Source: Isurus oxyrinchus | Lineage: Eukaryota | Assembly: GCA_026770705.1 (NCBI GenBank) | Contig: JANJGN010000008.1 | Span: 173,104,001-173,168,000, forward strand | Direction: 5' to 3' | Length of the DNA stretch: 64,000 nt | In this document: piece after piece, positions 24,070-49,490 of the stretch | Position numbering within the stretch: the first letter of the stretch is position 1 | Layout: each line of letters starts with the position of its first letter | Position numbers and translations under genes: made by a program | The notes under the pieces: generated by a model | Told to the model about the DNA's origin: nothing | The model's database searches: none | What the model saw: the letters and a program-made list of their open reading frames with translations, nothing else

Positions 24070-27000
24070 CTGAAAAAGAGGAAACAATACATCAGAAAAT
24101 ACAATTAGGTCTCAGTTGTGTAGCTGAAGTCATGTATCATAAAATGTCAGGAAATGAACCTTTAATTGTGGGTGGTCTAAAATATTGCGAGTTTTTGAGC
24201 ATGATATATAATGAAAAAGTAATTAAAGAAGTCTGGTCCTGCATGCCCCCAACATTAATTCATACCATTGGAAACAGCTGAAGGCATACCTGCTTTAGTG
24301 AATTTGGTAATCATCCTATGACTCGATCTTAAACTAGGGGCCTGTTCAGGGTTTCAGAAAGAGACTGCCTTCACCGCTGGATAACAGATTGGAGCAATGG
24401 TGTGCTCCCCCCTCTAAAAAAGATCGGGTTACACTTTGTAAAAGTTACTTTCCTACAACTTTGGAATGATATTTTTCTTGAAGAAGCATGTTCCCTCTTT
24501 CCTACTCACACATCATAATCAGTCGTCTCAAGCGTTACTCATTTGGAGTGGAGTGTCACTCTTATGGTGTAACACTGTGACACATTTTAAATGCAGCACA
24601 TTTTTCAAAATAGTTTCATATGTTTGAGTGTGTTGGTGATCCGGTTTTCTTTTTGATCATGAATCCCACTAAGGATTCCACCCCCCCCACTGCACCCCGC
24701 GCCCCCCCTCCCCAAAGATTGACGATCAACAGCCTCATGTTCACAGCAACTCCACAATCTCAGTTACAGTACGGCGCAAGTTTTGAGATTCAGGAACAAG
24801 GCTGTAGTTTGGGAGGGCGAGCCAAGAGAGAGCAAAGCCAGACCGTGCAATAAGGTGTTTATAACACAACCTGCAGAGGTTATTTTTCATGGATTTGTGT
24901 TTATTTGTGTGAGAAATGCCATGACGGTATTAATCATCTCTTCCAGGCATGAGAGCGAGTAACTGCTTTATCTTTACAATCCAACTCTTAACTCTTTCGG
25001 TGCTGAATCTCAGGACATACAACTGTCCTACATTTACGTTGCTAAATGGTTTGAGTTGTGCTGTTATTTTGTGGGATTGATGATCATTTTAGAAACTGAA
25101 GTCTCAATCTAAGGTCAACACTATATTCCAGCGTTGAGGTTCTCTCTTTCTTTTGCTGTTCTCCAATTCCACCATCTGTAATCTGGTGATCATTGATGGC
25201 ACACGTGGATTTGATTGAAAAGTATATCAAACAAAGTTATTAAGTGTCAGCGCATGATGGATTTTCAAAAGGCAGGATGTTTGTAACTCTTAGCATTTGT
25301 GTTATAGCATTTAAATCAGAGAGTCAACTTTTATTACATCGTAGCACATCAGTAGATGATTCCACTGCATAAATATATAAACTTTTTGAGAGGGATGGTG
25401 CTTGATTATTTAATTTTCACAAGGCAGGCAGAAGGAGCAGACTGAGGATATGAAATCACGGATGAGGGCTATGGGATATGAGATCAGGACCCAGGGGATC
25501 CGAGATGTGGGCCAAGAAAAGCAGAAAAATTGGACCAGCCTGAAGCTGCCAAACTGAGATTTCACTGACCACTTTTACCACTTAATTTCTAAAAGCTGAT
25601 ATACCACTTTCCAGTATTTAATTTGGTGGTCCACATATACACAACTTTATAATCTTTCCACAGTCAAGTTTAAGGCACACTTTATGCATTGTTGAAATAA
25701 ATACAAGTCTTACCAGACAACAGAGTAATATTTTGACTATTGCCTGTAATTTCCAAGACAGTTTGCATTTTGTGCACATGTAGTAACAAAGCAATTAGTA
25801 TTCAATGATGATTACATAATTAATCTGGATAAAGACACAGCATTTAATGACTGTTAAATAAATAGCCCTCTGTCATTTTACTTTTGTTCTCTTGACTGTT
25901 TTTCTCTTTCTTTGCATATCTGCGATTAGACTGAGAAATGATTCCATTATTAGTCATTTTTACTTATGTGCCTAAAAAAAGTTGGTGTTCTATTAAACTT
26001 GGAGATTTTAAGATTGAAGGAGTGCCTTTAGGCTTTACTTCTAGAATGTCCTTTTACAAAAAGTGCTAACACCTCACTTATTGTGAAAGGCAAAGCGTTG
26101 TATTGCATTTTCCATTTCTTCTTCTTTAGTTTAAATAATAAATAAAAATTATTTGTGAGCTCATAAGATTATGTAAGAGTAACAAAGTATACTTACTTAA
26201 ACAAAGTATTTTGGCTCACTAAACAGAAAATGAACTGACAGGTGTAGAAGAACAGTAAAATGTTATGACTTGTCTTAGAATCCAACAGGACAAATTTTCA
26301 GGTCCTACTACCAGTAGCTGCACTCAATTGGACAAACAAAACCTAATTGGACAGTGACCCTTCAGCCTCTCCACGCTTGTAATTTGGGTGCAATTGTCCT
26401 TTAAACATTGCTAATTGTTTTGATTTTGTGATATCTGTTTTCATTGGAAGTGGTGCTTTTTCAGTTTAACTGCTCTCACCACATGCCTGCTGAGGACCAA
26501 GACAACAACATCCTTCCACATTCATTGTGTACTTTAACAAATTGCTAGCATTAATGTGCCATCTTAGAAATATGTACTGCCGCTTTGTTTTGGCTAAAGG
26601 CAGAGACTTAAATGGAGTTTCCCTGCCAAACTGTCCAGAAAAAAAATACATTGAACAGAAACATAATTACCATTTTACAATAACATCTCTTCCCCTTGAC
26701 CCTGATGCTGCCATAGCACCTTCCAAAATGGATGCATATAGAGCTTGTCAAGTAAATAGGAGCATCTTGTGAATACAACACAATTTGTAACTATTATTTT
26801 ATGTTATGTTAACTGTTATTTTATGCCACCTTCTCCCCATCCCAATTTTCAAACTTGCCTTGCCCCACCAAACCCTTCCTGATCTGCCCACCCCTTACCA
26901 CTTCCCACAGTGCTGATCCATGCTGGGCATAGTCCAGTGGATTCCTGCAGTCCTCGAGTACCTCAACAGGTTGTTTGACTGCAATAAGCTTCACAGTTGG

Positions 27001-27929
27001 TGCTAATCTGTTCTCAGCTGAATATGCACACTCACTTATACTCCAGCACCTATCTCATAGGTCTACATTTCTATAGCAACTTGTGTATCGCTCATATATG
27101 TCCCAAAATGCTATTATGGACAGTGAAGTGCAGTCAATATCTTTATGTAAGTAAAGTGCAGGTATTCATGAAGCACAACATTAGCAGTTGACTGTCTTTT
27201 GAGGGGAAGAATTTTGGTGGGCTGGTAAGTCTTTAAACCATAGAGTATTCTAAGGCTATAATGTAAAGTTTACAGCCTCATCAAGATGACATATGTTTGC
27301 TCTGTGCTTCGGTCGCAGTCGGTTCAGTTCCATTCAGCCTTATGTTCATGCAGAATATTATTGCAGGAAGCAATATGCGATGGGAAACATAATAGTTTCT
27401 CACAAACTAAAAAAAGGAAATCAGTCTTTAAAGGGTAATAGAAGCCAGAACTTGTTATTGTTGCAATTTTTCCTATCAATCAAAACAAATAGGAATTCAA
27501 GTTATTTTCAAAAATCAACATTTGTAACAATGGAGAGTATTTTTAGAAATTTGCCAGAATGATTACAGTGAGCATATCCTTAGCTTACAGTCTGGAGAGT
27601 TTATTTCTTTTAAGGTAAGGACACATTTATTTAACTGCCAATGCTGCAGATTTATAGTCAGAAAAGTGATAAACCAGGCTTCCTCTTACATTGCCAAAAC
27701 ACATCTGTAAGTACTGTATTAAAGCAGTAAATCCCAGATGATGAATATAACCTCCATTAAGAACTCAGACCGTAACAAAGTTTAATTACATTTTGGCACT
27801 GGATTATTAAATACAGTTTACCATTATCAAATATATTTTATGAAGTCACCACTTATATATTCAAAGGTGAGGGTGATGCAGAGAGAGGGGAGATAGGACA
27901 ACTCTGCTCAAGTACCAATTATGTGTCTG

Positions 27930-28335
27930 CTATGGCGCGGTGGTAGCACTCTCACCTCTGTATCAAAAGATTCAGATTCAAGTCCCACTCAGGAGGTTCG
28001 AGCGCAAAACTCTTGGCTCACAGTTCAATGCGGTACTGAGGGAGAGCTGCACTGTTGGAGGTGCCACCTTTCAGATGAGTCACAAAATTGAGGCTCTGCC
28101 TGCCCTCTCAGATATAAAAGGTCCAATGGCACTAGTTTCAAGAAGAGCAAGGGAGTTCTTATTGTTGTCCTGGTTAACATTTATCCCTCCATCAACATTA
28201 CAGGGAAAACAGGTTATCTATTTTCATTATCACTTTGCTTTTCCTACCTAACAACACTGATTACAATTCAATTTCAGTGACTGTGAAACATTTTGGGACT
28301 TTTGAGGTTCTGAAAGGCACTATAAAAATCTACAC
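27930..28335 (+). mobile_element. Deu-domain SINE (SacSINE1/AmnSINE-like), near full length
   Basis: tRNA head ggtggtagcactctc...ttcaagtcccactc; gtactgagggag; Deu-domain atggcactagtttcaagaagagcaagggagttc...gtcctgg..atttatccctc; L2-type tail. Confidence 0.85.
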
Positions 28336-31300
28336 CTTTCTTATTTTTTCCTTTAATTATTTATTGAATTTATTTTTTGACATTATATAAATCATTAAAC
28401 GTTTATATTAACCATTCAATAAAATGAGGATGAATGGTTGCCTAGAAGACGCTAATTCCTGCTGCAGTCATGCAGTCTAAGATTATACTTTAACTACAGT
28501 TTCCAACATTTTCCTGGAACTTCTTAAAAATTCACATTGGCACCACCAAAGTTTGAAAGCCCCTCACTGATGGGGCAGCTGTTGCCGGGAAACTTTTCAA
28601 CACGAGGCTTGAACCCCAGGACAGATGTGCCATGATGTGTAGCTCTGGTGCAGTAACTCTGGCGCAAGAGGCATTGCAATCAGGTGTGGTAAAGGATATA
28701 TTCACACCAACAGAAGTTTTCTACATCTCTTGCGAGCTCCTCCGGCTTGTGTCTCGTGAAATTATTTTCCACAAGTTCAATGATATAAAATCTGAGTTTA
28801 CAATGCCCGGTTACAAAGTTCCACTCCCTGAAATGATGAGTGGGAGCTGTTGCCTATTTTCACTTAGTCACTAAGTGAAGCTTCATGGCATCAGAGTCAA
28901 TGCTACGTAGGATGTCTACTCCAAACTGCCTCAAACACAGCATTTTAAACCATTTAATTACATTAACATTGGATATCTCAGAGTCATTGGTAAATATGTA
29001 ATGCATTCCTTTATAACATTTACGATCTGACAATTCCATTGAATAATTTTTCTCTTTAAAAGCTTTAATTGTGCAAGTCTAAATCTGATTGTGAAAGAAT
29101 TAAGTTTGAATGAGTTTATAATTTTTCTAAGATGAACAACAATCAGTGCAGTAGGAAGAAAATTTCAAGTACAGAATGAAAGACATTTAAATTGCAAGAC
29201 TAAATTTCAATTCAACCAGAATATCCTAATGCTTTTCCTGAATCTTCAGTCACGTGTACTTTAACCATGTTCTCTACTATTATTACTATTTTGAGATTAC
29301 GGGCAGCCTATTAAGTTGCTTCATAAAATCATTGATTGCTGATGGATGTACTGCAAACCAGCTAAAAGTATTAGCAGCCTAGACTAATGTACAAAAATAG
29401 AATATTGCCAAATTGACTCATCAAAATGTCGAAATATAGTTTAGGGTTATTAGTACCTAAACATAATTAGGCTGATGAGTGTCTTTACTGAGTGTCATTG
29501 CATCATCACATAAAGCATAGCTTGTGAGGCACTGCTAGCTATCAGAGATATAGCCTAGCTTTCACTTCAGTGGAGATGTAACACACACACGGGTTAAAAA
29601 AAAATCTATTGCAGTAGCATTCGATGATTACTGATTGTGGATCACTTTTACTTTCCTCATCCAGTCTAACTTTGATAACTCGTATATTTTCAAGCTTTGT
29701 TTAATTTATCCAATTTGATGAATTTCTGATTTATAAAAGCATTCTGTTACTCAAACTATGTATTTTTAAAATGTAAAAACTTGGTTTCAGGAGTGGCTAG
29801 TGTTCTGATCATGTTGTCTCAATATGCTGTGTTTTTTTTTGCTGGATTATGATGTTATTATTTTAGAATCTTGCCAGTTTAAACCATATATAAATTTGTG
29901 TCCCAAATAGTTGCTGTAATAAATATTTTTTACTTTAAAACATTCTCTAAATCCACAAAGTAAAATTTCCTGCACGAGTATAATATAGTTTATATTTAAA
30001 AATATCGATATTGCAGTTCAAACTACACCTGAACTTAGGTTACAGAATAGTTTAATACTTTGAAGAACTTTTGTGTCCTATTATCTGCTACCAGTCACAA
30101 GGAGATCGATCCAGTGGTCTGTTTGAACAGATGTATGTTGTTTAATTTATGTTTCAAAATTGATTTTAATGGATTTTTTAAAAGTCAAGAGAATTGATTT
30201 GGATTGTCAATATTCAACTGTGACTTCAGTATTAAAGGAAAATTATTTATTTCCATAATTCTGGTGTTACGTGATTGTTAAAAAAATCTTATCTTGGCTG
30301 CAGTTTTCAGACTATAATTGGTAAAGTATTGCCTTGTGGGCGTTCAGTCAGTATCACACATTCATCAGTCACTTGTGAAACTTAACTTGGTCAGTAAAGA
30401 GACCCCATGTCTGAAGCCAAGCAGGTACCAACTTTGGCTGCAACACCAATTATGCAGCAACGTTAGAGCCAACTGCTTGGCTTCAGTTTATTTTCCTGTG
30501 TGCGATCTGCCCTTTCACTGCTTTTATTGGACTCAAGGCTTTGATTGATGTCTCAGTTTACATCCGGGTAATTACTTAGACATATGTTTTCAAAGTTACT
30601 ATTGTGGTAAAAGCCTAAGCCAAACTGCCTATCAGATGCTCCACTTTGTTTAAAAGGGATAACAATGTGTGATTTATTGCACTAGATATTATAGTTTGTA
30701 TTAATTGGGAAGTCAAGGTGAAGGTTCATAGTTCATTGGTCCTTGGGTACAACTAAAATTAAGAAGTATAAAAGATGGAAATCAGGAGGTAGTGTATATG
30801 GGATCCCCAAATGTAATTGTAAGAGTCAGAAGATCATCTGTAGTAGGAAAGACCAGGCAAAATAAATACTTCCATAAGTAGGAGGTGCTGAAAAGTGTAA
30901 GTAGGCTAAGCAGACACAATACCTGGGGTAATGATGCCATATTGAGTATTACATTTGCTCATTCTAACTGTGTTTTGAACAGCACAATAGGAATAGACTG
31001 ACAGAATTACTTCAATTCAGAATCCAGAAATGTTATTATGTAGAACAGCAAGATCGTTTATGTCATGTGTAGTTTCTCGTGGAATTTCTCACACATGAAT
31101 TTCTGGCAGCAATTGATTCCCAGAGCAGTTTAAGAAATGTGAAAAAGTATACATTATGATTATTCATTCTTCTGTGATCAAGGTATGTCCTCCAATCACA
31201 ATACTGTAGAATAATATTTTCAAGACATATCAGTTCAATCTTTAACATGAGGCAGGGAACTTGATTAACTGGCTTCACATGAACCATGGACAACAGTATT

Positions 31301-33199
31301 TTCCTTATGCTGTGAGGTGCTTGCATCTATATGATAAGAATCCGAGTGCTCATGGTAACTCCGTAATGGGCAATGGGGTTTATCAGCTGGAACTTCCATG
31401 TACATGTGAACTTCATCCATAACATGGAGATATTTTTCCAATAGCATCAAGAGACTCAGTGTTATAAAGTTTTGTTGGGAGAGACTTTCATGCATCATTA
31501 CATTTATTGTGCAATATTACTTTTGTAACCAAAAAGTGTGTCCCTTTTCCATGCTTAATTTTATTTCAGCATTAGATAATTACATCCGTATACATTTTTA
31601 ATCTCTTAGAACAATTCTGTTGCAAAGTGCTTTTGGAGAATAATTTGATGCTTTTGACTGGCTGTGAGGTGATGCATTTACTGGAACCAAGGTAGTTTAG
31701 CCATGGCCTTGGGGTGTGTAACTTTTGACAAGTACTTCAGAAACCTCCTATTTTAAAAAAATCATACTGCTCATTTGTCCAGTAATTTAAACAGGTTTTA
31801 ATTTATTTTTAAGCATTAGAATTCAAGGATTGAATGTTTGGCATAAAAGGAACAATCCTCGTGTCGTAGGCGCAGTAATGTGATTTATATATCAGTATAT
31901 TTGACAAAATTTAAGAATGCCCTATACACCAACAAGGTTAAATGGTGATCCGTCAAAACCTGTTAATAAGCCACACAATCACAAGATTCAGAACAAAGAA
32001 TTTTAAGGAAAAATATCTAACTAACTAATGCATTCTTTTATTTTTAATTTTGCCTTAAGTTAAGCAAGCCTGCCTCCTGCAATAGTATATAATCCTGTAT
32101 CTGTATGAAATTAAAACTCCAAGAAAATACTTAAAAGTATTAGGCTTTGAAATTTACCTGATCACACATAAATTACTTGTGGAAGTTGTTGTGAGAATGG
32201 CAAGCTCACTTTGGGCTCCCACACTGGGAAACACAGCTGTTGATTCTTAAGTGAGAGCCCAGTTTAATCAGAAAGATAATGAGATTGGCAATATTAAAGA
32301 TTGTTTTTCATATTTATAAACAGTATTAATTATAAATAGGTTGAAGTAATAAAATGAGAGGGTTTATCCACCGGTTGTAGCAGCTGTTTTAACCTACATT
32401 AAAGCATATTGAGGTCACCGTCATCTTAAATCATTTTGTCTTCTCTTCATATATAACTTTGTGTCAGTCAACAACTTTGCCCATGCAAAATTCCATGCAG
32501 CTCATACAGCCAAGCATCTAGAGCACAATCTAACCATTTGAATAGGTTAACTTTCAAAGTTCTAGTAACACAACCAAAACCCATGAAGCTCTGAAACACC
32601 AGATTAACACAACAGTGCAAACTAATAACAATACCACTTCCAGGAATCAATTTTCAGAGTCATCCACAACCCGAAGCTCACTCACTACCACAACATACCA
32701 TATATTTTAATATATCATGTTATAAACATGGCTTTTTTAAAAAAAAAAGAATATGTCAAAATAAATATTGAAAATAAGGAATGGAAAGTCAAGGAGCAAA
32801 GTACCTGCTCAACAACGTCTACCTTTAAAAAGAATACGCCTAACACTATTCATTTTAAAGTATTTCTGAAACTTCATAACTGATACTATTCAGACCTTCG
32901 TTCCAGAGCACCATTGATTTTGCGCTCATTAATGCTTTACCTAACCATAAAGAAACAGGATCAGAGAACTGAGTTGAATGAGGATTCATCTCACTTTGAA
33001 TCAGGGTATAGTGTATGTGCCCAACACCAGAAAAGGCTGAAGAACACCAGTTACAATGACATCAAAGTGGAGTGCGGTGTGCTAGGGTGGGATTCTAGGC
33101 CTATATCAAATGATGAAGCAACAGAAATGTTCTTGGTGGTCAATCTCTGCAGCGTTTACAGTTTGAATGCATTTCAAACAAAAGCGCAGTCAAGTGGGC

Positions 33200-33335
33200 T
33201 ACATGATGTAATTAGATCCAACCCTCACAACTCTGGCAGCTGTGTTCAAATCTGACCCAAACAGATGGGATGAATGTCACTCTGTTTGTGGGCTGCAATG
33301 GTCCGATATGAAATGAATTGAAATGAAAATGAATA
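33200..33335 (+). mobile_element. Possible LF-SINE-like head remnant
   Basis: gttcaaatctgaccca...ggctgcaatggtccgatatgaaatgaattg resembles the LF-SINE 5' consensus as I recall it. Confidence 0.35.
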
Positions 33336-36300
33336 TCAAGTTGGTTCCACAGCAAAAAGCCAGCTGGTGTGAGAAATTAAGAAATTACTATAGAGTAGGA
33401 AATGCTTCTCTGAAATTGCATTTCATGTAGTGGAGAGGAAACTTTACTCTATATAAATACAAAAAATCTTATTTGTGATTACCCAATACTAATATGGGTC
33501 ACCAGTACTGACAACTTTCAATTAAAATTCACAAAAAAAATCCAAACATATATCCTGTGAACAGTTACATGGGCTCTGTTAATATTCTTTATTCTAAAGG
33601 CTCTGCTATGATTGTCACAGTCCGTGAATGACACAACTCTGAAAATAAGTCAGCCACCTACTAATTAATTTCTATGGAATGTAAACTGACACCACATTTT
33701 TAAAATTATTTAATTAATTAATTGAGATATGTTACCAGCCTCACCACTAAGGATGGCTTGCTGGAGTACTATTTTAGCAATGTTGGTCTCATTCTCTGTC
33801 CAAGTTGGTTGTGAATAGGATATCACAACTAGCACTGTTTCTAATCTCCCCTGTGGCCTTTCTGCTCTATACAGTCAAACATGGTGTTTTTATCTTAAAG
33901 CCACAGGGGAAACTTGGAACCATTCAGGCAATGCCCATACAACAGGATATTACTGTGGGTGATTGTGGGTACTTAGAAGTCAGTAGGTGATATTATAAAC
34001 GAGGTTCCCTGCCTAGCTCATAAATCACTTTAAAATATATTTACCACAAGTCAAAGCAGGTCCATCAGATTATCTGATTCATTTTATTGGAATAATACAA
34101 CCTTTTTATTTAGGACCTTTAGACCTTCCATTCAAGGCTTTCAGCCTAGACGTGGGATGTTCGACCACAAGTCGCATCACAACATACGCTGCTTCCAGCT
34201 AAATCACTGGTTAGCCATCTAGAGGTGGAAACCAGGTGTTTTTATTATATTCCCTAGCCTAAGAACACTGGGCTCAATTGTAATGTTTTGGTTTCCTTGA
34301 TATTTGAGCTCAACCCAATCAGCTGAAAGTCCTGAGGAAGAGGTTTACACCGGCTGCCCTCTGTTTCTCCATAGATGCTAACTGACCCGCTGAATATCTC
34401 CTGCTTGTTCTGTTTCTGTTTTCAGCTGAGTGTTTTGGAGATTTTAATCCTGCAAGGTGGGGAGGACAGGCCGGCAGAGACCCGTTCTCGCTGGTCACAC
34501 ACTGTGCCTAATAAAGGCTACAAACACACTACAGCTTGCCTCGCCTGTAGGAAAAACTATTCAATGGGTTCCCAACATATTTTCTGCTTATGCTACGAAC
34601 AGACCAGAATTAATAAAAAAAGAGTGAGAAAGGTGGATGTACTAAGTGGCACCTAGTGATGTAATGACATGAAATCGTTAATTGTGTAATTGCAGTAACC
34701 ATTTTAATTGGATACTTTAGTGCTTTGGTGCCAGGGTGGTTGCTAAGGGAACAGTTATTGACTCGTGTTAGAGTTCCCGGAGCACGCTTGTGTTTAGATA
34801 CGGCAACACAATCTCTGATGCCCCCAAAGCGAGGGGGAATAGTATCATTGAAAATGTTCACGATTGTTTTAATTAATAGGAACGAGTTTTGTCACTCAGA
34901 TAAGAGGATTCAGAATGTGCCAATCACAATGCTCCACTTAAACCAAAATACAGCGAAGAACTGAATAACGGTACGGGGTGCAATTACTTGGTAGCATTCT
35001 TTTTTTCACTGCAATGTGATTTTGTTTATGTCACGGTACGGCTAACTTGCTAATACATCTTATTCTCTGGCTCCAAGGGCAAGTTTGTTTTCCTAAATAA
35101 AAGCGGCATTTGTTTGTATTGTGTAAAATAACTATGTTGGGAGGGAGTTGATAACTTTACTACAACCTTGGAGTTCAGTTGACAGACATAGCCGCTTTTG
35201 CCCGTGTGTTTTATGGCACTGTCGGAAGCTCTTGATTTGCCTCCTCCGATCTATTCGACAATTAAAACCCTAAACACTGAGCGTGAGCGTGCTTCACGAA
35301 TGAGAGAAAATGTGCAGGATGATACCGCTATGCTATGTTGGCCATGATGTAAGTGCAGCCCTGTGTCGCTCTGCAAGATTGATGCTGCAAAAAAGCGACC
35401 TCCCTCCTCAATATTCCGCAGCCCCACCACAAAGTCCATTCGCACGGACTGTCCAGACACAAGCTTTCCCATTCTGTCTGCAAATTCACACTCATACCGC
35501 GCACACACAGGCAGCAGTAACGTTAATCCAGCCCAGCCGACACATGAATTGGTCCTTATATTTGGGTCGTTAATTGCACCAGTCTGTGTGGGGGTACCTC
35601 CCTCTCGTGTATTGATGTTTTATAGAGCTATAAGGTTTTTTTAAAAAAAAAACTTGCATTTATATAGCTCCTATCACGACTTCAGGGCATCCCAAAGCGC
35701 TTCGCCACATAGGAAGTACTGTTTGAAGTGTATGGTTGTAAATTAAACTATAAACAACCAAATTGTTTTAATGTTCAGTGGTCTTTGACTAGCAATTATT
35801 CCAATCCTGAACCGTTCGGAGTTTCTATGTTTCCTGGTTAATTTGATTACAATGGATTACACAGCTTTGTAAGAAGGGCGGCGCAGTGTTAAAAGGATCC
35901 CACCCACAGAATGGGTGAAATATATAACTGCACTGAGATCACTATAGAAATCGCACGTTAAGCTCATCACGCTCCCCAACTCTGTAATCTTTCTTAGACC
36001 TTCATAGCCGATTGTGCCCTGCACAAATCCTCACATCGCCTGCTAAAGGTCAACCCCATACACTTGTTTTTGGGGGGAAAAAAAACAAGGTGATCTGTTG
36101 AGAGCTCCCACAGCAGTGGCGTGAATAGCACCGTCCAGTATATGTACCACCCCTTATACCGAATCCAGCATGTTTGTTAATGAGCACAACAGCCAACAAA
36201 GTTGCCATTGCTCTTCCCTTCTCCCCACCGTCGGTGTTATGGAAAATAAGAAAACAGCCCAAAATTAACTTACTGCTACACATGGAAAATATTCATATTT

Positions 36301-38810
36301 CTTCATGACAGAGGTCACTCAGACATGGTTATTTACGCGCCCAGATGCTAAAAGCGGTGCTCAAGCACATAATTAGCACCACCCTCGGCAATTTATTGCA
36401 CTGCTTTCAATTATTCCCAGCCTAGGGTCCCCTGGAAACACCGATTGGATGGCGAGCATGTCAAATGTCAACACCTATATTGGTGGCATTTGTTTTTGAA
36501 AACTGCCTCTTTAAGGAGCGGGAAGGTCCATAAGGTGCGAGTTAATTCCCCACTCTGACCCCATACACACGGAGTTGGCTTGTGGAAAAAGTTCATTTAC
36601 TTCAATAAGCATCCAGATAACAGCGTTGTTCTAGCGTATGGTTTTATTTGTTTCACGCTATAAATTATATTAAAAAAAGTTGGTAAACTGAGCCCTGTTT
36701 TTATCGGATACACTGTGATAAATTGGTCCTGTTTGAAAGTTAGCTATTTCATTCCGCTTTGCAGGCTCCATTTCTATGTGACTAATCGAAAGACTCGGTA
36801 ATTGGCCTCCAATTTGATTTTAAAGTAAAAAAAAAATAACAGTAGTTTATTACAAAGTGCAATAAACGTAAAATAGATTTTCAAACCTTTTAAATCTTTT
36901 TAGAGTTCTACCAATACCCAGTGCCCTAAGGCATGAAATTCTATACCTGCACCTTAAATGTTACTGATTCAGAATTCAGAACGAATTCACATATTCAGCT
37001 CTTGCGAATATGAACAAGTCAACTTTAACAGATAAAAAAACACGAATGCGTGAGATTTAACTCCTCAGCAGAACGGACTGCAGGAAGTAAATGAAGAGAC
37101 ATAAATTTGACGATTATACACACAAACACACACACACAGACATTATATGGGAGGGATCTAGATTTTTTTTGGGGGGGGTATTAACTATTTTAATTCACCT
37201 CGAAAGCATTGTTTGAATATGATAGCTCTGATAAGTCCAACTATGTTCGAAATTTTAAGAGAATTCATTTATCAGGCTCCCACAGCATGTGTCATATGCC
37301 ATTATATATCTGTAAAACATACTTGCTCGAAGCTAAAATGTTGTTTATTAATAGAGCACAAAATCAAGATAAAAGATTCGCAGCAATGAAATAACTAAGA
37401 TATGATAGGATCATTTTACTGGTGGTTTGGTCAAATTGTCGGTCTATATTTTTGATGCGACTCCAAACGTGCACAACATTTCTTCCACTATAATTTGCAG
37501 CATGTAAAACTCACATAAAACACATGTGAAATATAAATACTTCTTGCTGGACAGACGCAATTACTGGCAACAAACTCAGATGCGGATCCAAACAACACTT
37601 GCATGGTTTCATATCGATTATCCCTGGTACTTACTGGCGCAGCGATTGACGTGGAAGCTGGAGAGATGCCTCCCATTTGGGGCATTAATAGTGCAAAGAA
37701 AATTCGAGTCATACCTTTCATTTTGTGAATTTATGTACTAACTATCAGCAAAATAAGGAGAAATCTACTTCCTGTCAGAATTCCTGCAAATGATTCATCC
37801 GTGTCTTCGCCCCTGAAATGGATAGTAACTGTACTGCAGCAATCCAATACATCCCAGTGACTAGATCCCCACAGTGCGGAAGGCTCCACATTACTTTCAA
37901 TTGATATCACACAGGGTTTGATCTAAAGACTGAATCCTGAGACATCATCAATACTTCTACGAAAAAGCTCTGGAATGGTCTGAAAATCTTGCACACCCTT
38001 TTGCAGGACACCTCTAACTTGAAATCAATTATTCGTCCGTGCCCAGGCTGAGCTGGATTGTATTATTTTGCAATGATATTTCAATTTGTTTCTTTAACAT
38101 GCAACACACCCCACAAGCCTCTTTGAGAAGTGAGGGCAGCAGTGCAATATAGCACTGGCAATCCGGATTCAATCCAAATAGTCGCATTCTGAGTAGGGAC
38201 TGGTTGGGAATTTAAATTACAAAGGGAAGTTAAATTGACAAGTTGATTAATAAAAAGGGGCAGTATAATTTCCCAGTTGTGGAAAAAAAATGGAAAATTC
38301 TGACCTTGTAAAATGTTTCAATGTGGCACACAATACCTATGCCGGCCTCACAAAGCGGACACAAAGGCCTTTCTGTTCCTCTCTCATAATTACATTACCT
38401 ACATTGCACATCATGGAAGGAGTGGAGATTATTTTCATGAAATTGTCTAAATGAATCGCACAGTTATGTGAAAGAAAGCGGAATTTAATGAACAAAACAT
38501 CAGGCGATTGCTAAGAAGCTAAAAAAAAAGATATTCAGAACGGGTGAAAACTAAAACGTAAATACAAGTTGTTGAGGAGGGTGGATGATATGTTCGGTAC
38601 TTTTGTCCATTCGCGGAGTTTTAATGTGGACACTGGTTTTGGATGAGACCTGAGGGAATTTTTGATCTGACGATTGGAGCTTTGAAACTTCCTGTCAACT
38701 TTCAAATCCACACTATTCTGTAAAGGACAGGCTGTGATCACCTGTCCGGATACCTGAGGCGTGCGATCTGCTTTAGTGATTTATTGGAAGGACCTATTTA
38801 AAACCCTCAC

Positions 38811-39242
38811 NNNNNNNNNNNNNNNNNNNNNNNNNNNNNNNNNNNNNNNNNNNNNNNNNNNNNNNNNNNNNNNNNNNNNNNNNNNNNNNNNNNNNNNNNN
38901 NNNNNNNNNNNNNNNNNNNNNNNNNNNNNNNNNNNNNNNNNNNNNNNNNNNNNNNNNNNNNNNNNNNNNNNNNNNNNNNNNNNNNNNNNNNNNNNNNNNN
39001 NNNNNNNNNNNNNNNNNNNNNNNNNNNNNNNNNNNNNNNNNNNNNNNNNNNNNNNNNNNNNNNNNNNNNNNNNNNNNNNNNNNNNNNNNNNNNNNNNNNN
39101 NNNNNNNNNNNNNNNNNNNNNNNNNNNNNNNNNNNNNNNNNNNNNNNNNNNNNNNNNNNNNNNNNNNNNNNNNNNNNNNNNNNNNNNNNNNNNNNNNNNN
39201 NNNNNNNNNNNNNNNNNNNNNNNNNNNNNNNNNNNNNNNNNN
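38811..39242. other. Assembly gap (432 N) in intron 4
   Basis: Run of N. Confidence 1.
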
Positions 39243-39499
39243 TTTTAAATTACAATTTTCACTGATGAAAAGTCGGTTTAATAAAGATCCTGTAGCTCAT
39301 AAAATGTTATCTTTAAAAGTGCTTCAAATGTTGATTATGAAATATTAATGCGCCGTATCCAAATATTTCATTCTATCCTTTCTAAAGCGGACTCTTCCAT
39401 GCTTTTCATCTTAAAGAGAAGCTTAACGCACTTCAAGAACCTTCACCAAGCGGGAAAGGAAACAGCCATCTAGATTCCCAAGGGAACGTAGGTTCTTAC

Positions 39500-39621
39500 C
39501 TGAAATAATCCACTTTGCAGAAAATTTCTTTGTTTTTAATGTAACAGCTGGTATGTCTGCGTAGGGAGGTCCTGCAGACTGAACATACCAAACAACGAAC
39601 GTGCCAGATCAGGTTATTCAC
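39500..39621 (-). CDS. LHX6: LHX6 coding exon 4 (LIM1: [41 protein letters not shown])
   Basis: Translated by hand (absent from the ORF track); ttgcag|GTG ... TTC AG|gtaaga; 122 nt, ends in phase 2. Confidence 0.97.
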
Positions 39622-41687
39622 CTGCAATGTAACACACAAAATCCATCAGCTGCCACAGAGTCAGATTAAACACTTCAGTCACTTAACCTGGACACATCCG
39701 AATGCGCAATAAGTGTTACATTCATGATTAACCTGTTTAGAATGTAATTCCGATGGAACTTGTGTATTTTGCCTGATCTATTTTAGAACCAGGGAGTGTG
39801 ATGATAGTGTAACAGCATCCAGAAATGCGTATGTAAAACAGTGTTCTGTTTGCACTGAAATACATCCAGAAATGTCAAATGCGGACATTGGTATTACTTC
39901 CTGATGATATCTTGTAACTATAAAATGTATACAATTCAACTGAGAATTTCTTATTGAGCATCATGGGTTTGTCGCTTATGTTGAAAGCGCAAAGTAGAAT
40001 AATCGGTTTTACTTTGCGCTTGTGGTTTTATATATATAATAAATATGACGCAAATTATCATAACGTATTTGTAACGTATAATGGATAAATAACGAGATCG
40101 CCTTGGTGCTTCAGACGAAAGGAATATTTCATAAGGTCCTAAATATCGAAGGATTAAATTTTACTTAAGTTATTTGAACACCTAATGTTGTTTATGAAGC
40201 CATTTTCTGCAGATCCATGAGTCAATCGGTTAAGATGGACCTGCCTCTGTATGCGAAACATAAGTATTTGCTGATGAAAATAGTGAGGTTTGGCCCTGAG
40301 AGTCACCATCGTCAGATACATTCATGTGGTTGTGCCTATTGCATTAGGCAAAAAAAAAACTCTGCAAGGGCTTCATATAGAGGGGATGTGGATATCCATA
40401 TAGTGCTTTGTTTTAAAGGGAAATCGGCAGAGTTGGATCATAGTTTGACATTAAACAATTATTCTTTCCACCCGCCGCCCCGCCCCCATCCGTCCTCATC
40501 TGCTTTACAGTGTCAAAAGGTCGAAAATGGTGCATTCGATAGAACTTTGAATTCGAAGTACTTCAAAGTTTAACAGCAACTCCAGTCATCAAGGTTGAAA
40601 GCAACACGCGATGTATCCACTCATGATGGCTGCGCACAGACATTAATTAAATACACGAATCTGTAGAAAACCAGCGGGTCACAGCTCAGGGATCGGAATG
40701 GTTCCCCCGTTGTGGCACTTTCCCGAACAGTTCGGCTGAAATCGCATTTGGCAACATTGGGACGATCTCGGAGTTGAATGTGTGCACTAACGGATACAAC
40801 TGCATGTGCAGTTTACACCTAGTGAGCTCCTCCCTCTCGCCTAGAGCTCGGGTAATAAAAGTAATCATTCATTTTATTAAAAAAAAAGTTGTTCGATTCA
40901 GTCAATATTTCTGTCCAGACTGATTAGCATTGCCACTTACCAGGAGTTAATAACCAACAACTAATATTCCACACTTTTCTAAATTGTAAATGTACAGAGT
41001 ATTATTTTCTAATTCCCATTCATTGGTGCCCAACCTCGGGTTATTTTCCATAAACCTCCATCTGCCCAAGGTGCAGAACACCTCCAATATCAGCATCAGG
41101 GATACTGGGAATTTTGGACTCGAGTTTTAACCTGGCGCGTTCAGTGACAGTTTATGCAGTCGGCCCTTGCTGTATTACTTTTTAACGCGGCGCTTTGATA
41201 CCCCCTTTAGATGCTGCATTTCAAACTTTGGGAGTTACCATCCCTCACTACGTTTATTTAAAACACTGGAATTAACGAGTACATCTCTTTACCGCAGCAT
41301 TGCATTGTCAGGTTTGGTGGGGGGAGGGGGGAGGGGTTGGCATATTGTTGAACTGTACATTTAAAATACATACATTTTATGTTTCTTGCAAAAAAAAATA
41401 ACTCTGGAGGATATATCAACGTTAAATCGGAATTGACGCAGTGAGTAATCTGAATCGGGCCACATCTATTTTCATTAGTCCCGCTAACGAGAGAAGACCA
41501 ACACTTCAAGGCACAGTTTATCCTCTCTGTGTCCATTATTCTCTTTACTTTTCTAACTCAGCTGAGATTCAAGACTATTTGTTTATTGGGTGAGCGCGCA
41601 TTATTCGAATTGCGCCTATCTGATGAATCGATACGGCGATGTTACTCTGGCGTTGTCCCCCTTGTGACCTCTCATTAAAATACTCAC

Positions 41688-41870
41688 CTTTAACAGATAT
41701 TTATCTAGGATTTCTAAGCCACAGCTGGCACAGATGTTTTTGTCGGCAGAGGTGATGGAGTAAGAGGATGAAGGCGGAGATGAAATAGAGGGAGTAGATG
41801 GAGGACTGGGGGAAGATCGGATCTCATCCTTCTCCACGTTAGTTCCCAACGTGTCCCCATCAGAGTGAGA
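41688..41870 (-). CDS. LHX6: LHX6 coding exon 3 (Ser/Pro-rich region and start of LIM1, ...KNICASCGLEILDKYLLK)
   Basis: ttttccacag|TCT ... AAG|gtgagt; 183 nt; PSTPS.SPPS and KNIC..CGLEILD motifs of LHX6. Confidence 0.97.
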
Positions 41871-43435
41871 CTGTGGAAAAGGACAATAGGGGGGAAAAAT
41901 ATGAATCCATTTCATCCAACTGCATATCTCTGAAAAGTATTAAATGCGTTCTAGAGTCCTTAAACGAGTTTGTTTTTTTTTTAAAAAAAACACTGCCTCC
42001 CCCGCTTAAATTTCCTTAATTTGAAAAACGATTAATGTCTGTTGCCATCAACAATTTGCAGGCAGCATTAGTTCCAAAGTTAGGCCGAATGTCAGACTGG
42101 GTTGCATTTTTTTTAAAAAAAAAGATTTTCAAACGAACTTTTCACATTAAGAAATACATTTACCAGATAAATGCAGGTGATCTGCCGGTTTCCAGACAAA
42201 TAAATCATTATCCAATACACGTATTTCACGTATTTCAGACTCAACCAGCCGCACATCTCTCTGAGCAAGGCTTGAGATTATTTGTATACAATGTCGGCTT
42301 TTATAGACTAGTCGCACCAGAGTTGATTATAACACAGAAAACGCGCCCGTCAAAAATTATTGGTGATCAATTTCGGATTTTGTTGACCCTCGTTTGAAAA
42401 TGGCGCTCGGGAGAATTCATGCATTTTCCCCCCAATTTCCAACTCGATCAGCGTGCGGGGCACTGGACCCACACTTCACCTGTCCAGAAACCAATACAGT
42501 TTTCTCGCTACGCCGTCTGTGCTTTCTATCGACGGGTTCGGAGTTTGCCCACATGTTACAGTTAAGCACCGTGCAATATTTAGCTAAATACCCGGCAAAT
42601 GCGAAGGTTTGAGTCTGGTCACTTTTTTTAAAAAAACCCTATTTTATGCATCACTATGTAACACTACAGGCTAATCAGTTTGGTTTTGCACTGGGGATTT
42701 CGAAGGGAAACGCATTCTTTGACACGGGTTGTTACAAGGGATCTAAATATTATGAGTTTAGCCAACAATGTGCACTCCATCGTGACAGCTGCGTTGACTG
42801 GTACATAGTTTGATCCCTGTCATTTTAAAAATACAGATATATCATGGCTCCTGTATTATACAGCGATATAGCTGGAGCGCTCTAACAGTTAATAATTATC
42901 ATCCGCGTATGTAACCTCTTTGTCCTATAAAATCTAGCACACACGGAGAGGGCTCAAATCCAATGGATTATCTTTACATGACACCTATTTTCAGGTAAAT
43001 TTCAGCATATCATTAAAAATGTCAATTCCATGCGGGGAAAATACAGTTCAGCTTTAAGAGCCCAAATTAAGTAAGAGCGTTCTTAACGTTAAAATAGTTT
43101 CCCTCCTTGGCAGCTGCAGACAGTTGTATGAAATACACGAGAACACACACACACACAAAAGCCACGCCGCTAACATTTTGCCTGTTATTCACCATCACTT
43201 TTTTGTTTGCAAACTTTTGATTGTTTGACCGTGGCGGCCCGGCTTGTAAAATCGCCGATTGTTTAATCTCTGACATTGACACAAACAATCCAAGTGGGAT
43301 CCTATAACCTCAAATGGATTTAGGATTTACCACGGGGGGAAAAAAAATAATCAAACCCGTAGCTGCATCGTCAGCCTGGAGCGAATGAAACAAGTTCTGA
43401 CTAATCATGTTCATCTTAAATGTTCTCATACTTAC

Positions 43436-43507
43436 CATGATCTGAGAAATGTTGTTTTCCACACAGCGCGAGGTGCCTTGTTTATGCTGACTGTCCTGTG
43501 ACATTAC
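43436..43507 (-). CDS. LHX6: LHX6 coding exon 2 (VMSQDSQHKQGTSRCVENNISQIM)
   Basis: ttcttaaag|GTAATG ... ATG|gtaagt; 72 nt; resembles mammalian [24 protein letters not shown]. Confidence 0.9.
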
Positions 43508-43584
43508 CTTTAAGAAAAATTTGAACCACAAACATGAATGCAATGCTTGCTGCAGCAGCCTTATAAAGGTATTTAAAAGAACTG

Positions 43585-43860
43585 GACGTTTATATATATG
43601 AGCCTAAAATAATAAATAATATTTTTTCTAGTGGGCATTTAAATCTATGCAACAATACGGCATTTAATGAAGCAATTTTAATTTTGATTCGATCTTTTCT
43701 CCACTTAACCCTGAGCTCTTGAAGTAATCGCTCACTTTCTGTGCAATCCAAGGCAGAGAAATAAACTACCTGCAATTAGAAACTGGATGAAATCCGGAAG
43801 ATAAGTGCTAACCAGGGTGTCAATTACAGCTGTCAATCAATAAGGCATCCGGGCACCACA
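43585..43860 (-). promoter_or_regulatory. Intron-1 regulatory module / candidate alternative promoter with NKX2-type, PBX-MEIS and TATA motifs
   Basis: GCTCTTGAAGTA 43715-43726, CCACTTAA 43701-43708, TGATTGACAG (minus) 43830-43839, TATATAAA (minus) near 43589-43596. Confidence 0.65.
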
Positions 43861-44834
43861 GAATTGGAAATTTGATTTCCTAAATGGCAGTAATTAAAAA
43901 TCTAATATTTTTGAACGAACGACTGGGGAATGAGAGTGTGAAGTGGTCAGCCTGAAAGCTTTTTTTCTATTCAGAAGACCTCTCACCCACCCCCCACCCC
44001 CACCCCCCCCCCCCCCTCCTTTAAATTTCAGATCGAGATTTACAATTGCAAATGCCTCATTTTTAACCAGCTGATGGTGAGAAGGAAGGTAGTAATTTTT
44101 GGATCTATAGTGCTGAGTTCAATGGAAACAAGGCACGTTTTCGATTATTAGTTGCATTTTAAGGAGACGGTACAACTTGCACTAGATCTGGGAGTGTGCA
44201 GTCATATCTAAGAGGTTTTTTTTGGCGCACAGTTTCTTGACATTGCATCATACATTTTACAATCCGTTTTGTTTCCAATGCTCTTAAAAGCAATAAGTAC
44301 TTGTTTGAATATATTCTTCAAACTTACATGGTTATGGGCGCTACTGAAACCGAAACAGTTGGCTTGAAACGTATACAGGCATAACACCACAGTGCAATAT
44401 TCTGCCGGGTCTTTCACTCCCCAATTCTCACTGACATTACTACAGCCCATTTATTATTATACATCCATCACCCCCAACCCCCATACTCTGAAGGTTTATT
44501 TTGGAAAAGCGATCGATTTTCAATTCATTCCTGTGTTTGAGGCGTTCATTCTCCCAGTTCGCCTTGAATATTTGAAAACCCTTTTCCTCCCCTGTAATAA
44601 ATCCCGCGGTAAACTACAGAGAGATACTTGGACATACTTAGCCTTAGCCCTCGTTTAAACGATTTCTAAGCCATTCAGAAAGAGGTTTTGCAGCCGGCTT
44701 CTTTCCTATATGCAAAATGCTCCAAGGGCTGATCAGAAAGTTAGTGAAAACTCGTAATTAACTTACACGCATAGCTGTCCAAACATTTCTCGCTCTGTCT
44801 TTCTCCCTCCCCTGTAAAAGCCAAGTGTTTTTAC

Positions 44835-44912
44835 CTTTTCGGCGGGGATTCCTTCAGATAGAACCTTGTTCCCCTCTGGCAGAGGAGCCAGAGTTTCACT
44901 TTTCCAGTACAT
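44835..44912 (-). CDS. LHX6: LHX6 coding exon 1 (MYWKSETLAPLPEGNKVLSEGIPAEK)
   Basis: ATG at 44912-44910; MYWK..LPEG N-terminus typical of the long LHX6 isoform; donor AAG|gtaaaa, phase 0, 78 nt. Confidence 0.93.
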
Positions 44913-45267
44913 GGGGATGGTCGAGTCTTGAAGGAACTGGTTCCGCAACACCCAGGAAACTGCTCGGGAGCTCTCTCTCTCTCTCTCTCAGTGCCGATCA
45001 GAAGGTTCCCTCCTTTTCTGCTCCCGCTCACTCTCCCCTTGGCCCTTCGCGAGGTAAACGTGTAAAATCCATCGGTGGACAGTTCCAGAGTCAGCCGGTG
45101 TGTTGGGCGAGCACCGCACGGTGAGACAGCATCAGCACTGATCGGGGGCGGACCAGAAAATCCTGTCTGCGCGGAGGTATGAAGGGGCATTCATTGTGAT
45201 TACGTTGCGAATCTGGACATCAACGCAGCGCCTGCGATTTCTTAGCCGTTCAGAGAGAGAGGAGAAA

Positions 45268-45301
<34 letters not shown>

Positions 45302-45400
45302 GCACAATTTGGTTCCAAGTTTCAGATCCCTCGGCTTTCACAGGTCTGATCGCAGACAACCGGGTTTTTTTTTCCAAGAGCTAAATGTTTACTGGACTTG
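44913..45400 (-). promoter_or_regulatory. LHX6 5'UTR / proximal promoter, CpG-rich
   Basis: Immediately upstream of the ATG; many CpGs, GC box GGGGCGG near 45145-45151, (CT)n near 44971-44989, (CA)n near 45268-45300. TSS position is inferred. Confidence 0.7.
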
Positions 45401-47785
45401 AGTGAAAAAAAAAACCTTCCTTCCACTTTTCCGTTTGGAGTGAAGTTGCTGGAAGCCAGGAAGTGAAGTGACTCGATCATACAGGGCAGGTCTGCTCTGT
45501 CAGCTTCTAGAGAAAGTCCATGTGGAGTGCGAGAGGTTCAGGGATCTGTTTAATCTAACTGTGTAATCAGGATTGACCGGAGGGAATGAGAGAGAGAGAG
45601 TTCACCTTCTCTCACTCGCTTTAACTACAGTGAGTTCCAACTTCAGCCAGAAGCGCCCATAGAGTTTATCTTGAGGTTAGCGGGGGGTAGAGATCTGTGT
45701 CTCTGTTTTCCAATAGACGCTTATTGAAATATGCAATTAAATTCCTACCGCAGTTTATTTTTTAATTGTGGAAATGCACCGTGGCCCCCTACATTTTAGT
45801 GACCCATCTCCGAACTGAAACCAAATAAACAGCTGGTTTGTTCAAATCTGACCTGGGGATTAACAACCCAGTGTCCTTTGGCGGAATATGCAATTGAGGG
45901 AGTTGGGGAGTGTTATTGCACTTGCTATGTGAGCACATGTCTGTAAATGAATGAAATGTACACACTCTGGTTGACTGGAAATGTATAGGTGAGGTGATTA
46001 CATTATGCATGTGATTAAACCTATCAGCCCATGCCTGGACTGGTACAGTAATCTGTGCACATGACACTTGCTGTTATTTGCTCTTCACTCCACCCCTAAA
46101 ACGCAATCCAGACCGATGTTTTTATGCGAATTGTTCGCTCGATTTTCTCCCAGCTCAAACTTCATCCGATATGTGACAGTTCTTTAGTATAAAGCCTTAT
46201 GTTTAGCAAATAGATCTCATCTCTTATACCTGTGTTTCCTTACGTGGCTCTGACACTAATGTTAAATTAGAAATGCGTTAAGTGGAACATTATCGATGAA
46301 TTTGTATCGAGATAACTGTGATATAAAGGCCAATGTTTAGCTAACTATGTGAATGTGCATATGTCTAAGCCACCTATCAACAGGGGTTAATTATAGCTTC
46401 TAGTCTAAGGAGTGAAAGTGCTTGAAATGTAGAATAGCTGGAGGTTACATGATGAGTGCTGGGGTCCGCACTATTTCTAATTTCAATTTCACTTTTAGGG
46501 TTTTCAAAATGGCAGACCCAGGCAAAGACCTGAAAGTATTTTACACGAAGGCAGGTTCAGGAAGCCTGGGTGTCTATAATAACGCACTGGCTGCATAAAC
46601 AAATTCCTCCCTGTTATAAGTGGTGGAGCAGGACTTTATCCCAATCGAAAATGGGACGGCAAAACTGATTTGTACCTGACCCGCTCCCTCCCAGAGACAC
46701 TGCAGCAACAGAATGTCTGTCGTGGCTTGTGTGTGTGAATTTCACTGTGCTCAGTCGCGGAATGCAGACTCCCTTTAAACAATCTGACATCCCCGATGAG
46801 GTCAGTTATCGCTTGGCATCCATTCCCCCCCTCACCTCACTATATTCTAGCCCACACTTGCATTATTTTGGTAGCGTTAAGGACGAAGCTCCGGACGGCA
46901 ATTTTGCGTTTGGTGTAGTAACAACGCATTTTACCAGTTCCTATGTCAGGAAATTTTTGGCTGCAGCGTTTCTAAAAGCAACATGGTCTTTAAAGACGGT
47001 GCTAATTCCCTATTCCGCTGGATGCTCCCCCCCCCCCCCCCCCCCCCCTTTGGAAAGTACAAATCAAATTAATTTTCCGCTTTTCGAAAGGAAAATAATT
47101 CAGTTGTCCAATTCACACACTTCGAATTTATTCGGTGAAACAAACTATCTTAGAGAATCGTGGACACGTTTGGAGAATTAGTTTGTCCTGAGACAGAAGA
47201 CTGAGGTTATCAGTTTAACAACCAGGGGCAGGTAGCCAGTTACAGAGAAGCCACATGAAACAAATCATTCACAACTCTCAACAAGCAACAGTTTCTATCC
47301 ACCTCGCCGGCGAATGAAACTGGAGCTGTCTCAATGGAAAAGTGGCAGTCGAATGGAGTGAGATGGTAAGCGAGTGCTCAGATGTTAGGATAAGTCTGCA
47401 GCTCTGCGGAAAATGTGGCCAAAATGACAGAAAAAAATACAAAAGCGAAAGGTATATATTTTTTATTTTAAAAAAGGAACAATCTCTCCCCTCACGGATC
47501 AGTTTGGCTGACGGCGGAGAGTCGGGTGTGAGTGAGTTCACTGTGGGGCATTTTACCTGATTGATTCGCAGGGACAGTATTTCTCTGCTTAACTCTGCCA
47601 TTTCTGGGTGAAATACTAACTTTCTGTTTGAAATACTAACCAAAGCGCTTAAAGGCAACCTGGTGAACAAGTAGGTAATTTAAAAAGAGGCCCAAAGCCT
47701 CAACTACTGATTTGTGTGCGTAGTTGCTGCAGACCGAGAAGCTGGGTCCTAGCTTCCTCCCGTGCTCCAGCCGCGTTAGTTACCA

Positions 47786-49490
47786 AAAAGACTTGCATTC
47801 ATGTAGGGCCTTTCCCGTCTCCAGGACGTCACAAGCGCTTTACAACCCAGAAAGTATTTATTTTGCAGTTGTTGTCATGAAGGAGCGTGGCAGCCTATGT
47901 GCGCACAGCAAGCTCCCAGAAACAGCATTATGTTCATGGCCAGAGGATCTGGTTTTGTGATTTTGAGTGAAAAATAAATATTGGCCAGGACACCAGGGGT
48001 AGATCCTTGGATCTTCTTCAACATAGTGACATGGGGTCTTTTTCACCTGGGAGGATAGACAAAGCCTCAGTTTAATATCTGTTGGAAAAATAGTGCAACT
48101 TCCAACAATGCTGCACTCCCTCAGTACTGAATTGCAGTATCATCCTGACAATACCGCACCCCCTCAGTATTGAACTGGAGTAACAGTACAATAATGCAGC
48201 GCTACCTCAGTACTGAACTGGAGCAACAGCCCAGCAATGCTGCACTGCCTCAGTACTGAACTGGAGTATCAGCCCAACAATGCTGTACCATCTCAGTACT
48301 GAAATGGAGTATCAGACCAACAATGCTGCACTCCCTCAGCAATGAACTGGAGTATCAGACCAAAAATGCAGCACCATCTCAGTACTGAACTGAAGTATTA
48401 GTCCAACAATGCAGCACTCCCTCAGTACTGAACTGGAGTATCAACCCAACAATGCTGCACTCCCTCAGTACTGAACTGGAGTATCAAACCAACAATGCTG
48501 CACTCCCTCAGTACTGAACTGGAAAATTAGTCCAACAATGCAGCACTCCCTCAGTACTGAACTGGAGTATCAACCCAACAATGCTGCACTCCCTCAGTAC
48601 TGAACTGGAGAATTAGTCCAACAATGCAGCACTCCCTCAGTACTGAACTGGAGTATTAGTCCAACAATGCAGCACTCCCTCAGTACTGAACTGGAGTATT
48701 AGTCCAACAATGCAGCACTCCCTCAGTACTGAACTGGAGTATTAGTCCAACAATGCAGCACTCCCTCAGTACTGAACTGGAATATCAGCCCAACAATGCT
48801 GCACTCCCTCAGTACTGAACTGGAATAAAAGTACAATAATGCAGCGCTACCTCAGTATTGAACTGGAGTATCAGCCCAACAATGCTGCACTCCCTCAGTA
48901 CTGAACTGGAATAACAGTACAATAATGCAGCGCTACCTCAGTACTGAACTGGAGCGTCAGCCCAGCAATGCTGCACTGCCAGTACTGAATTGGAGTAACA
49001 GTACAATAATACAGCACTACCTCAGTACTGAACTGGAGTATCAGACCAAAAATGCAGCACCAAATCAGTACTGAACTGAAGTATCAACCCAATAATGCAA
49101 GACTTTCTCAGTATTGAACTGGAGCATCAGCCCAACAATGGAGCACTCCCTCAGTACTGAACTGGAGTATCAGCCCAACAATGCTGCACTCCCTCAGTAC
49201 TGAACTGGAGTATCAGCCCAACAATGCTGCACTGCCTCAGTACTGAACTGCAGTATCATCCTGACAATACAACACTCCCTCAGTACTGAACTGGAATAAC
49301 AGTACAATAATGCAGCGCTACCTCAGCATTGAACTGGAGCATCAGCCCAGCAATGCTGCACTCCCTCAGTACTGAACTGGAGTGTCAGCCTTGAATTTTG
49401 TGCTCCGGTTTTGGAGTTTGGGGCTTGAATGCACAACTGTCCGCCTCTAGGGCGAGGGTGCTCTGCCAACAGCCACGGCTGACACTCAAG
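47786..49490 (-). mobile_element. Deu-domain SINE with internal tandem expansion
   Basis: Tail and Deu domain at 47786-48100 (aaatattggccaggacacc...tcttcttcaacatagtg..catggg), tRNA head at 49390-49490, array in between. Confidence 0.85.
48103..49390. repeat. 43-bp minisatellite, about 30 copies (CCAACAATGC[A/T]GCACTCCCTCAGTACTGAACTGGAGTAT[C/T]AG[C/T])
   Basis: Directly visible; consecutive units start at 48661 and 48704. Confidence 0.97.

Follow-up and report, generated by a model that had tools for sequence, protein, structure and literature searches.

A probable shark orthologue of the mouse Lhx6 NKX2.1 element at the end of LHX6 intron 1

In the shark Isurus oxyrinchus, LHX6 intron 1 ends in a group of NKX2-type and homeodomain motifs. 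We read this group as a likely elasmobranch counterpart of the enhancer/proximal promoter of mouse Lhx6. NKX2-1 would open it in medial-ganglionic-eminence (MGE) progenitors, and DLX proteins and LHX6 would then hold it. We put the probability of this reading at roughly 0.6. Three other accounts of the same DNA are weighed below, each beside the evidence that bears on it.

Results

The motif cluster had been assigned to LHX6 intron 1 by a first-pass annotation of the window (the whole 64-kb stretch of DNA analyzed here), and this assignment is borne out by an intact gene model. LHX6 lies on the minus strand in seven coding exons with canonical splice ends, and the reading frame is kept with 0 stops in 291 codons. 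Intron 1 is 1.3 kb long. The exons are as follows:

44835..44912, minus strand: LHX6 coding exon 1, 78 nt, with its ATG at 44912 and a GT donor; matches residues 1-27 of stingray Lhx6 (P0003)
43436..43507, minus strand: LHX6 exon 2, 72 nt, with AG/GT boundaries and an in-frame ATG at 43504-43502
41870-41688, 39621-39500, 24069-23849, 5557-5457 and 4684-4589, minus strand: LHX6 coding exons 3-7

The predicted product matches stingray Lhx6 at 264/291 residues, lungfish at 247/289, gar at 246/291, and a pair of mammalian proteins at 229-232 residues out of 291. Exon 5 alone is 92-99% identical to the 120 matches listed. Judging from sequence comparison, we identify the host gene as LHX6 and not LHX8, because the 291 codons match Lhx6 proteins, none of the listed exon-5 matches bears the name Lhx8, and an 82% paralogue, taken to be LHX8, is found on a separate contig (C16). 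Elsewhere in the gene, the intron between the two LIM exons measures ~15.4 kb (24110-39500) and the next one ~18.3 kb. CpG observed/expected ratios are 0.6-0.8 over ~14 kb (34001-48000, spanning exons 1-4) vs. ~0.2 in most other bins, and there is a further CpG-rich bin at 6001-8000.

Every motif named in the first-pass annotation was found where it had been placed, and together these motifs occupy the interval 197-335 nt upstream of the exon-2 ATG. The 12-mer GCTCTTGAAGTA lies 211-222 nt upstream of this ATG, agreeing with the claimed ~210-220 bp. The proposed element and its parts are listed below. Its bounds are the outermost motifs and were not derived from an alignment, and NKX2 scores count matches to the NKX2.1 consensus (G/C)CACT(C/T)AA given in a table of PMC9081933.

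43589..43896, minus strand: putative enhancer or alternative proximal promoter, single copy in its own genome; it falls within 43400-44000, where comparison with a second species indicates constraint
43589..43598, minus strand: TATA-like TATATATAAA, 85-94 nt upstream of the exon-2 ATG; candidate promoter motif, going by its sequence
43629..43640, plus strand: exact 12-nt match to the 3′ end of a mouse Lhx6 NKX2.1 ChIP primer (primer from PMC5339799)
43701..43708, plus strand: CCACTTAA, NKX2.1 consensus 8/8
43715..43726, plus strand: GCTCTTGAAGTA, candidate counterpart of the mouse -240 NKX2.1 site, with a TCAAG core on the minus strand; consensus 6/8
43773..43778, minus strand: TAATTG (CAATTA on the plus strand), homeodomain site of DLX/LHX type; mouse DLX5 and LHX6 summits fall at a compatible position
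43801..43808, minus strand: GCACTTAT, NKX2-type site 7/8, containing TAAGTG (43802-43807)
43821..43839, minus strand: composite TGATTGACAG-CTG-TAATTG, made up of a PBX-MEIS decamer (43830-43839), an E-box CAGCTG (43827-43832) and TAATTG (43821-43826)
43891..43896, no strand assigned: TAATTA homeodomain palindrome

Within the list, CCACTTAA stands only 6 bases from the 12-mer and fits the NKX2.1 consensus fully, compared with six of eight positions for the 12-mer. A comparison with Rfam returned no match in 42500-45500.

To estimate how often such motifs would arise by chance, we used a third-order Markov model of the window. Taken singly, the short motifs are unremarkable: counting strand matches, the window contains CCACTTAA 7 times, TAAGTG 34 times, CAATTA 61 times, and CAGCTG 62 times. 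Perfect matches to the NKX2.1 consensus number 14. When a 166-bp span was slid along the sequence, 227 of 6324 placements held at least two TAATTG/CAATTA/TAATTA sites. The 12-mer is unique in the window and expected 0.0002 times in intron 1, a value that is informative only if this is truly the published mouse site. For the PBX-MEIS decamer, which was chosen post hoc, 0.0006 occurrences are expected per 166 bp and 0.22 per 64 kb, and dinucleotide shuffling of the element produced it in 16 out of 20000 trials.

The comparison with mouse begins with the 12-mer. Du et al. 2008 (Development) reportedly described an NKX2.1 site of this sequence ~240 bp upstream of the equivalent mouse Lhx6 ATG, and GCTCTTGAAGTA at 43715-43726 would then have the sequence of that site. 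The first-pass annotation had counted the mouse distance of -240 from the ATG. A paper that cites the site instead measures -240 from a “putative transcriptional start site” (PMC5339799). A full-text literature search for the 12-mer returned unrelated papers only. Six metagenome matches to the two NKX2 motifs were dismissed as chance, their flanks being without similarity.

Indirect support for orthology comes from the published mouse assays. The mouse Lhx6 element is said to run up to the end of intron 1, and a 2.1-kb fragment is reported to be active where Nkx2-1 is, to be induced by added Nkx2-1, to lose activity in null slices, and to be silent in 7/7 ES clones (PMC3641041). Primers for a 391-bp mouse amplicon that includes the -240 NKX2.1 site have been printed, together with a positive NKX2.1 ChIP result at that amplicon (PMC5339799 and its preprint). 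The last 12 nt of one of these primers are identical to 43629-43640, are oriented toward the motifs, and form the longest exact run in the window. A 391-bp amplicon extended from this match would cover all of the motifs. Such a 12-nt match is expected 0.0037 times in intron 1 and 0.18 times in the whole window. Over its full length, the same primer matches at 15/24 positions, and a chance run of 11 nt is found at another place in the window. The second mouse primer could not be matched. The 120 Lhx6 protein records included no intron read-through over the element.

The first-pass annotation had also raised orthology with the NKX2.1-bound mouse element. This suggestion is strengthened by the primer match, by the position at the end of intron 1, and by constraint against a second species (below), and the intron-1 element is probably the shark orthologue. 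The two share the same gene, the end of intron 1, and a location just 5′ of the exon-2 ATG, and the shark carries the 12-nt primer block together with NKX2-type sites ~200-220 nt before the ATG. They differ in that the shark copy comes from a cartilaginous fish, with predicted binding and activity, and leaves one of the two mouse primers unmatched. In the 70 kb around the LHX8 paralogue, the best blastn hit (E 0.11) lay outside the element and the decamer was absent, indicating no duplicated element.

One alternative is that these motifs came together by chance in an AT-rich intron end beside a splice acceptor and are unrelated to the mouse site. Short motifs are indeed common in the window, and the primer identity covers half of one primer. 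However, that identity is rightly placed and oriented, the cluster occupies the position of the described mouse element, and the surrounding DNA is constrained, so we regard a chance origin as very unlikely.

The constraint was gauged from the share of retained words rather than from an alignment, and against one close relative. In this second species, 0.93 (57/61) of the sampled 31-mers of 43400-44000 were kept, across 13 listed runs from 4 studies. For neighboring DNA, a second-species contig over 44056-45250 showed 18 substitutions and 3 indels along its 1195 bp, with 16 of these 21 differences falling within the 779 intronic bases. Rates from this neighboring DNA predict that 0.53-0.58 of the 31-mers would be kept vs. 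the 0.93 observed. In simulations with exon 2 held invariant, 57/61 words were reached in 19/20000 and 56/20000 runs at the neighboring rates, and in 1120/20000 runs at 1% divergence. By this indirect measure, the 43400-44000 stretch diverges less than the DNA beside it, and the case is weaker should local divergence be 1%.

To ask which factors might use the element, we turned to published ChIP peaks from mouse ganglionic eminence. The mouse Lhx6 start site was placed at 36104058 from the distance column, assuming that distance was measured from the end of the neighboring peak, and the strand of Lhx6 in mouse, which we also assumed, was used in mapping the peaks onto the shark element. DLX1, DLX2, and DLX5 peaks are reported over the Lhx6 start site (mm10 chr2:36103892-36105059), and DLX5 and LHX6 peaks span mm10 chr2:36104151-36104496 with summits at 36104268 and 36104337 (PMC11088997). 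With the start site at 36104058, mouse -240 falls between both summits. We infer that the DLX and LHX6 peaks map to the equivalent of the shark element, and this occupancy points to use of the TAATTG sites by homeodomain factors. In the same dataset, MEIS1/2 are marked absent at chr2:36103892-36105059 in E14.5 ganglionic eminence, with an Lhx6 promoter peak count of 0 (PMC11088997).

Under the orthology reading that we favor, NKX2-1 would bind CCACTTAA and the 12-mer in MGE progenitors, with the two sites presumably working as a pair, and would open or activate the element. DLX proteins and LHX6 itself would then maintain it through the TAATTG sites, perhaps supplying a start at the TATA-like motif. 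The role of NKX2-1 could also be smaller than this. NKX2-1 motifs have been argued to be mostly repressive, with NKX2-1 perhaps only poising loci and its route to Lhx6 activation described as unclear; in the same work, repression through NKX2-1 motifs extends to activating elements, and activation is marked by LHX6 motifs and E-boxes (PMC6138899). The element may thus be orthologous and yet merely poised by NKX2-1, or bound by it without being activated, with DLX1/2/5, LHX6 autoregulation, and bHLH factors activating it through the TAATTG sites and E-box. The DLX and LHX6 peaks at the presumed mouse position fit such a scheme, as does the weak consensus match of the 12-mer (6/8). Against it, added Nkx2-1 induces the mouse fragment, whose activity is lost in null slices (PMC3641041), and the amplicon is ChIP-positive (PMC5339799), even though induction and ChIP results of this kind do not tell direct from indirect activation. 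Overall, we consider a merely poising or passive NKX2-1 unlikely, though it is the chief competing account.

The first-pass annotation further suggested a TALE co-input at the cluster, based on the PBX-MEIS decamer. The decamer is present and exact, and on the minus strand TAATTG begins 3 bp past the MEIS hexamer; in mouse ganglionic eminence, MEIS-DLX spacing is reported to be commonest at 2-4 bp (PMC11088997). However, the suggestion is weakened because the mouse ganglionic-eminence ChIP data, from one tissue of one species, place DLX1/2/5 and LHX6 at the presumed mouse position and show MEIS1/2 without a peak there. The decamer would be at most a secondary input. In the shark sequence, a decamer-like 8/10 unit TAATTGACAC starts 3 bp after the PBX-MEIS decamer (43817-43839), and TGACAGCTGTAA within this interval is one base from what we take to be a palindromic MEIS/TGIF-type dimer site.

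Two known groups of elements offer a comparison. Like the MEIS2-DLX5 co-bound enhancers of the ganglionic eminence, the shark element has TGATTGACAG followed by TAATT at a 3-bp distance, within their 2-4 bp range. Yet LHX6 antagonizes those enhancers, whose targets are projection-neuron genes of the LGE, whereas the mouse Lhx6 element carries DLX and LHX6 peaks without MEIS1/2 in that dataset (PMC11088997). The shark element also resembles ancient Pbx/Meis conserved noncoding elements in being constrained noncoding DNA beside a developmental regulator with a TALE motif (PMC3261376). Its TGAT lacks a following NNAT, however, and so does not make a Pbx-Hox site, and the 9 supplement files of that paper do not contain the element.

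A stronger version of the TALE argument would hold that constraint stems mainly from TALE-plus-DLX input (TGATTGACAG, 3 bp, TAATTG) in tissues other than the MGE, such as first-arch mesenchyme or the diencephalon, with the NKX2 sites being minor. Lhx6 is expressed in the first arch. An exact decamer is rare among shuffles of the element (16/20000), its spacing lies within the in vivo 2-4 bp, Meis motifs are reported as enriched in vertebrate conserved elements (PMC3261376), and some zebrafish lhx6 domains are described as persisting after triple nkx2 knockdown (PMC4251446). On the other side stand the absence of MEIS1/2 from the mouse site in ChIP data of E14.5 ganglionic eminence (PMC11088997), the lack of an lhx6 entry in the zebrafish TALE supplements (7 files, PMC6023610), and the genome-wide count of the decamer-N3-TAATT arrangement, which is not enriched (37 vs. 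45 for the control). Weighing both sides, we think it improbable that TALE-plus-DLX input is the main source of constraint.

The 19-nt composite at first seemed over-represented in the genome (14 vs. 1 for its control), but this was set aside, as 7.5-9.8 occurrences are expected from composition. Seven of the 13 other 19-mer matches belong to one repeat family, and their likeness to the element is confined to the motif that was searched for. That dispersed family (L021, L023, L024, L025, L029, L030, and L031; ~65-78% alike over several hundred bases) carries the PBX-MEIS decamer beside CAGCTG, and repeats of this kind could spread TALE sites through the genome.

Discussion

If the orthology is true, NKX2-1 and LHX6 have been joined by a direct cis link since at least the jawed-vertebrate ancestor. 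Deep conservation of the NKX2-1 to LHX6 relationship is in itself already expected from zebrafish knockdowns and lamprey cell types. Pallidal lhx6 in zebrafish is reported to drop strongly upon nkx2.1 knockdown, in a paper that calls the mammalian site highly conserved (PMC4251446), and lamprey is described as having NKX2-1/4a+ LHX6/8+ neurons (PMC10555824); PMC7768279 provides context only for the evolutionary claim. Because the site had been called highly conserved, zebrafish dependence had been shown, and the lamprey cell type is present, a shark copy would come as a small surprise.

The first-pass annotation described this link as one that specifies MGE interneurons, and this description is overstated. 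In catshark, the MGE is marked by nkx2.1 and lhx6, which fits the orthology reading, but GABAergic cells bound for the pallium appear to be LGE-derived (bioRxiv 2025.05.08.652169). Since pallium-bound interneurons look LGE-like in catshark, the link is better termed MGE/pallidal than cortical-interneuron.

An orthologous shark copy would also serve as a phylogenetic footprint, pointing to the important bases of an element that has been tested mainly as a 2.1-kb fragment. Such a footprint bears on how NKX2-1, with its mostly repressive action, activates Lhx6 in mouse. The literature that we searched (titles and the starts of abstracts, with most subscription papers outside its coverage) yielded no paper on the shark copy. 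As a long shot, the ancestral jawed-vertebrate LHX6 switch could have been two-sided, combining an NKX2-1 pair with a PBX-MEIS/DLX arm. The shark copy would then respond in MGE territory as well as in MEIS-rich territory, and the TALE arm, by being gained or lost, would have helped to shift the source of pallial interneurons from the LGE, as in shark, to the MGE, as in mammals.

The element may have a promoter function as well, as the TATA-like TATATATAAA could possibly provide the start of a short isoform that begins at exon 2. Several Lhx6 protein records begin at the Met equivalent to the exon-2 ATG. Stingray, lungfish, turtles, and mammals have this Met. Among 43 records pattern-matched across exons 1-2, 28 have Ile at this position (25 of them from named ray-finned fishes) and 15 have Met, including one cod, so an exon-2-initiated isoform may have been lost in most ray-finned fish. 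In three bird isoforms (P0047, P0054, and P0055), exon 2 is extended 24 codons upstream, and the extension implies a TATAT word ~70 nt before the Met. Its resemblance to the shark TATA-like word at 43589-43598 is a weak hint.
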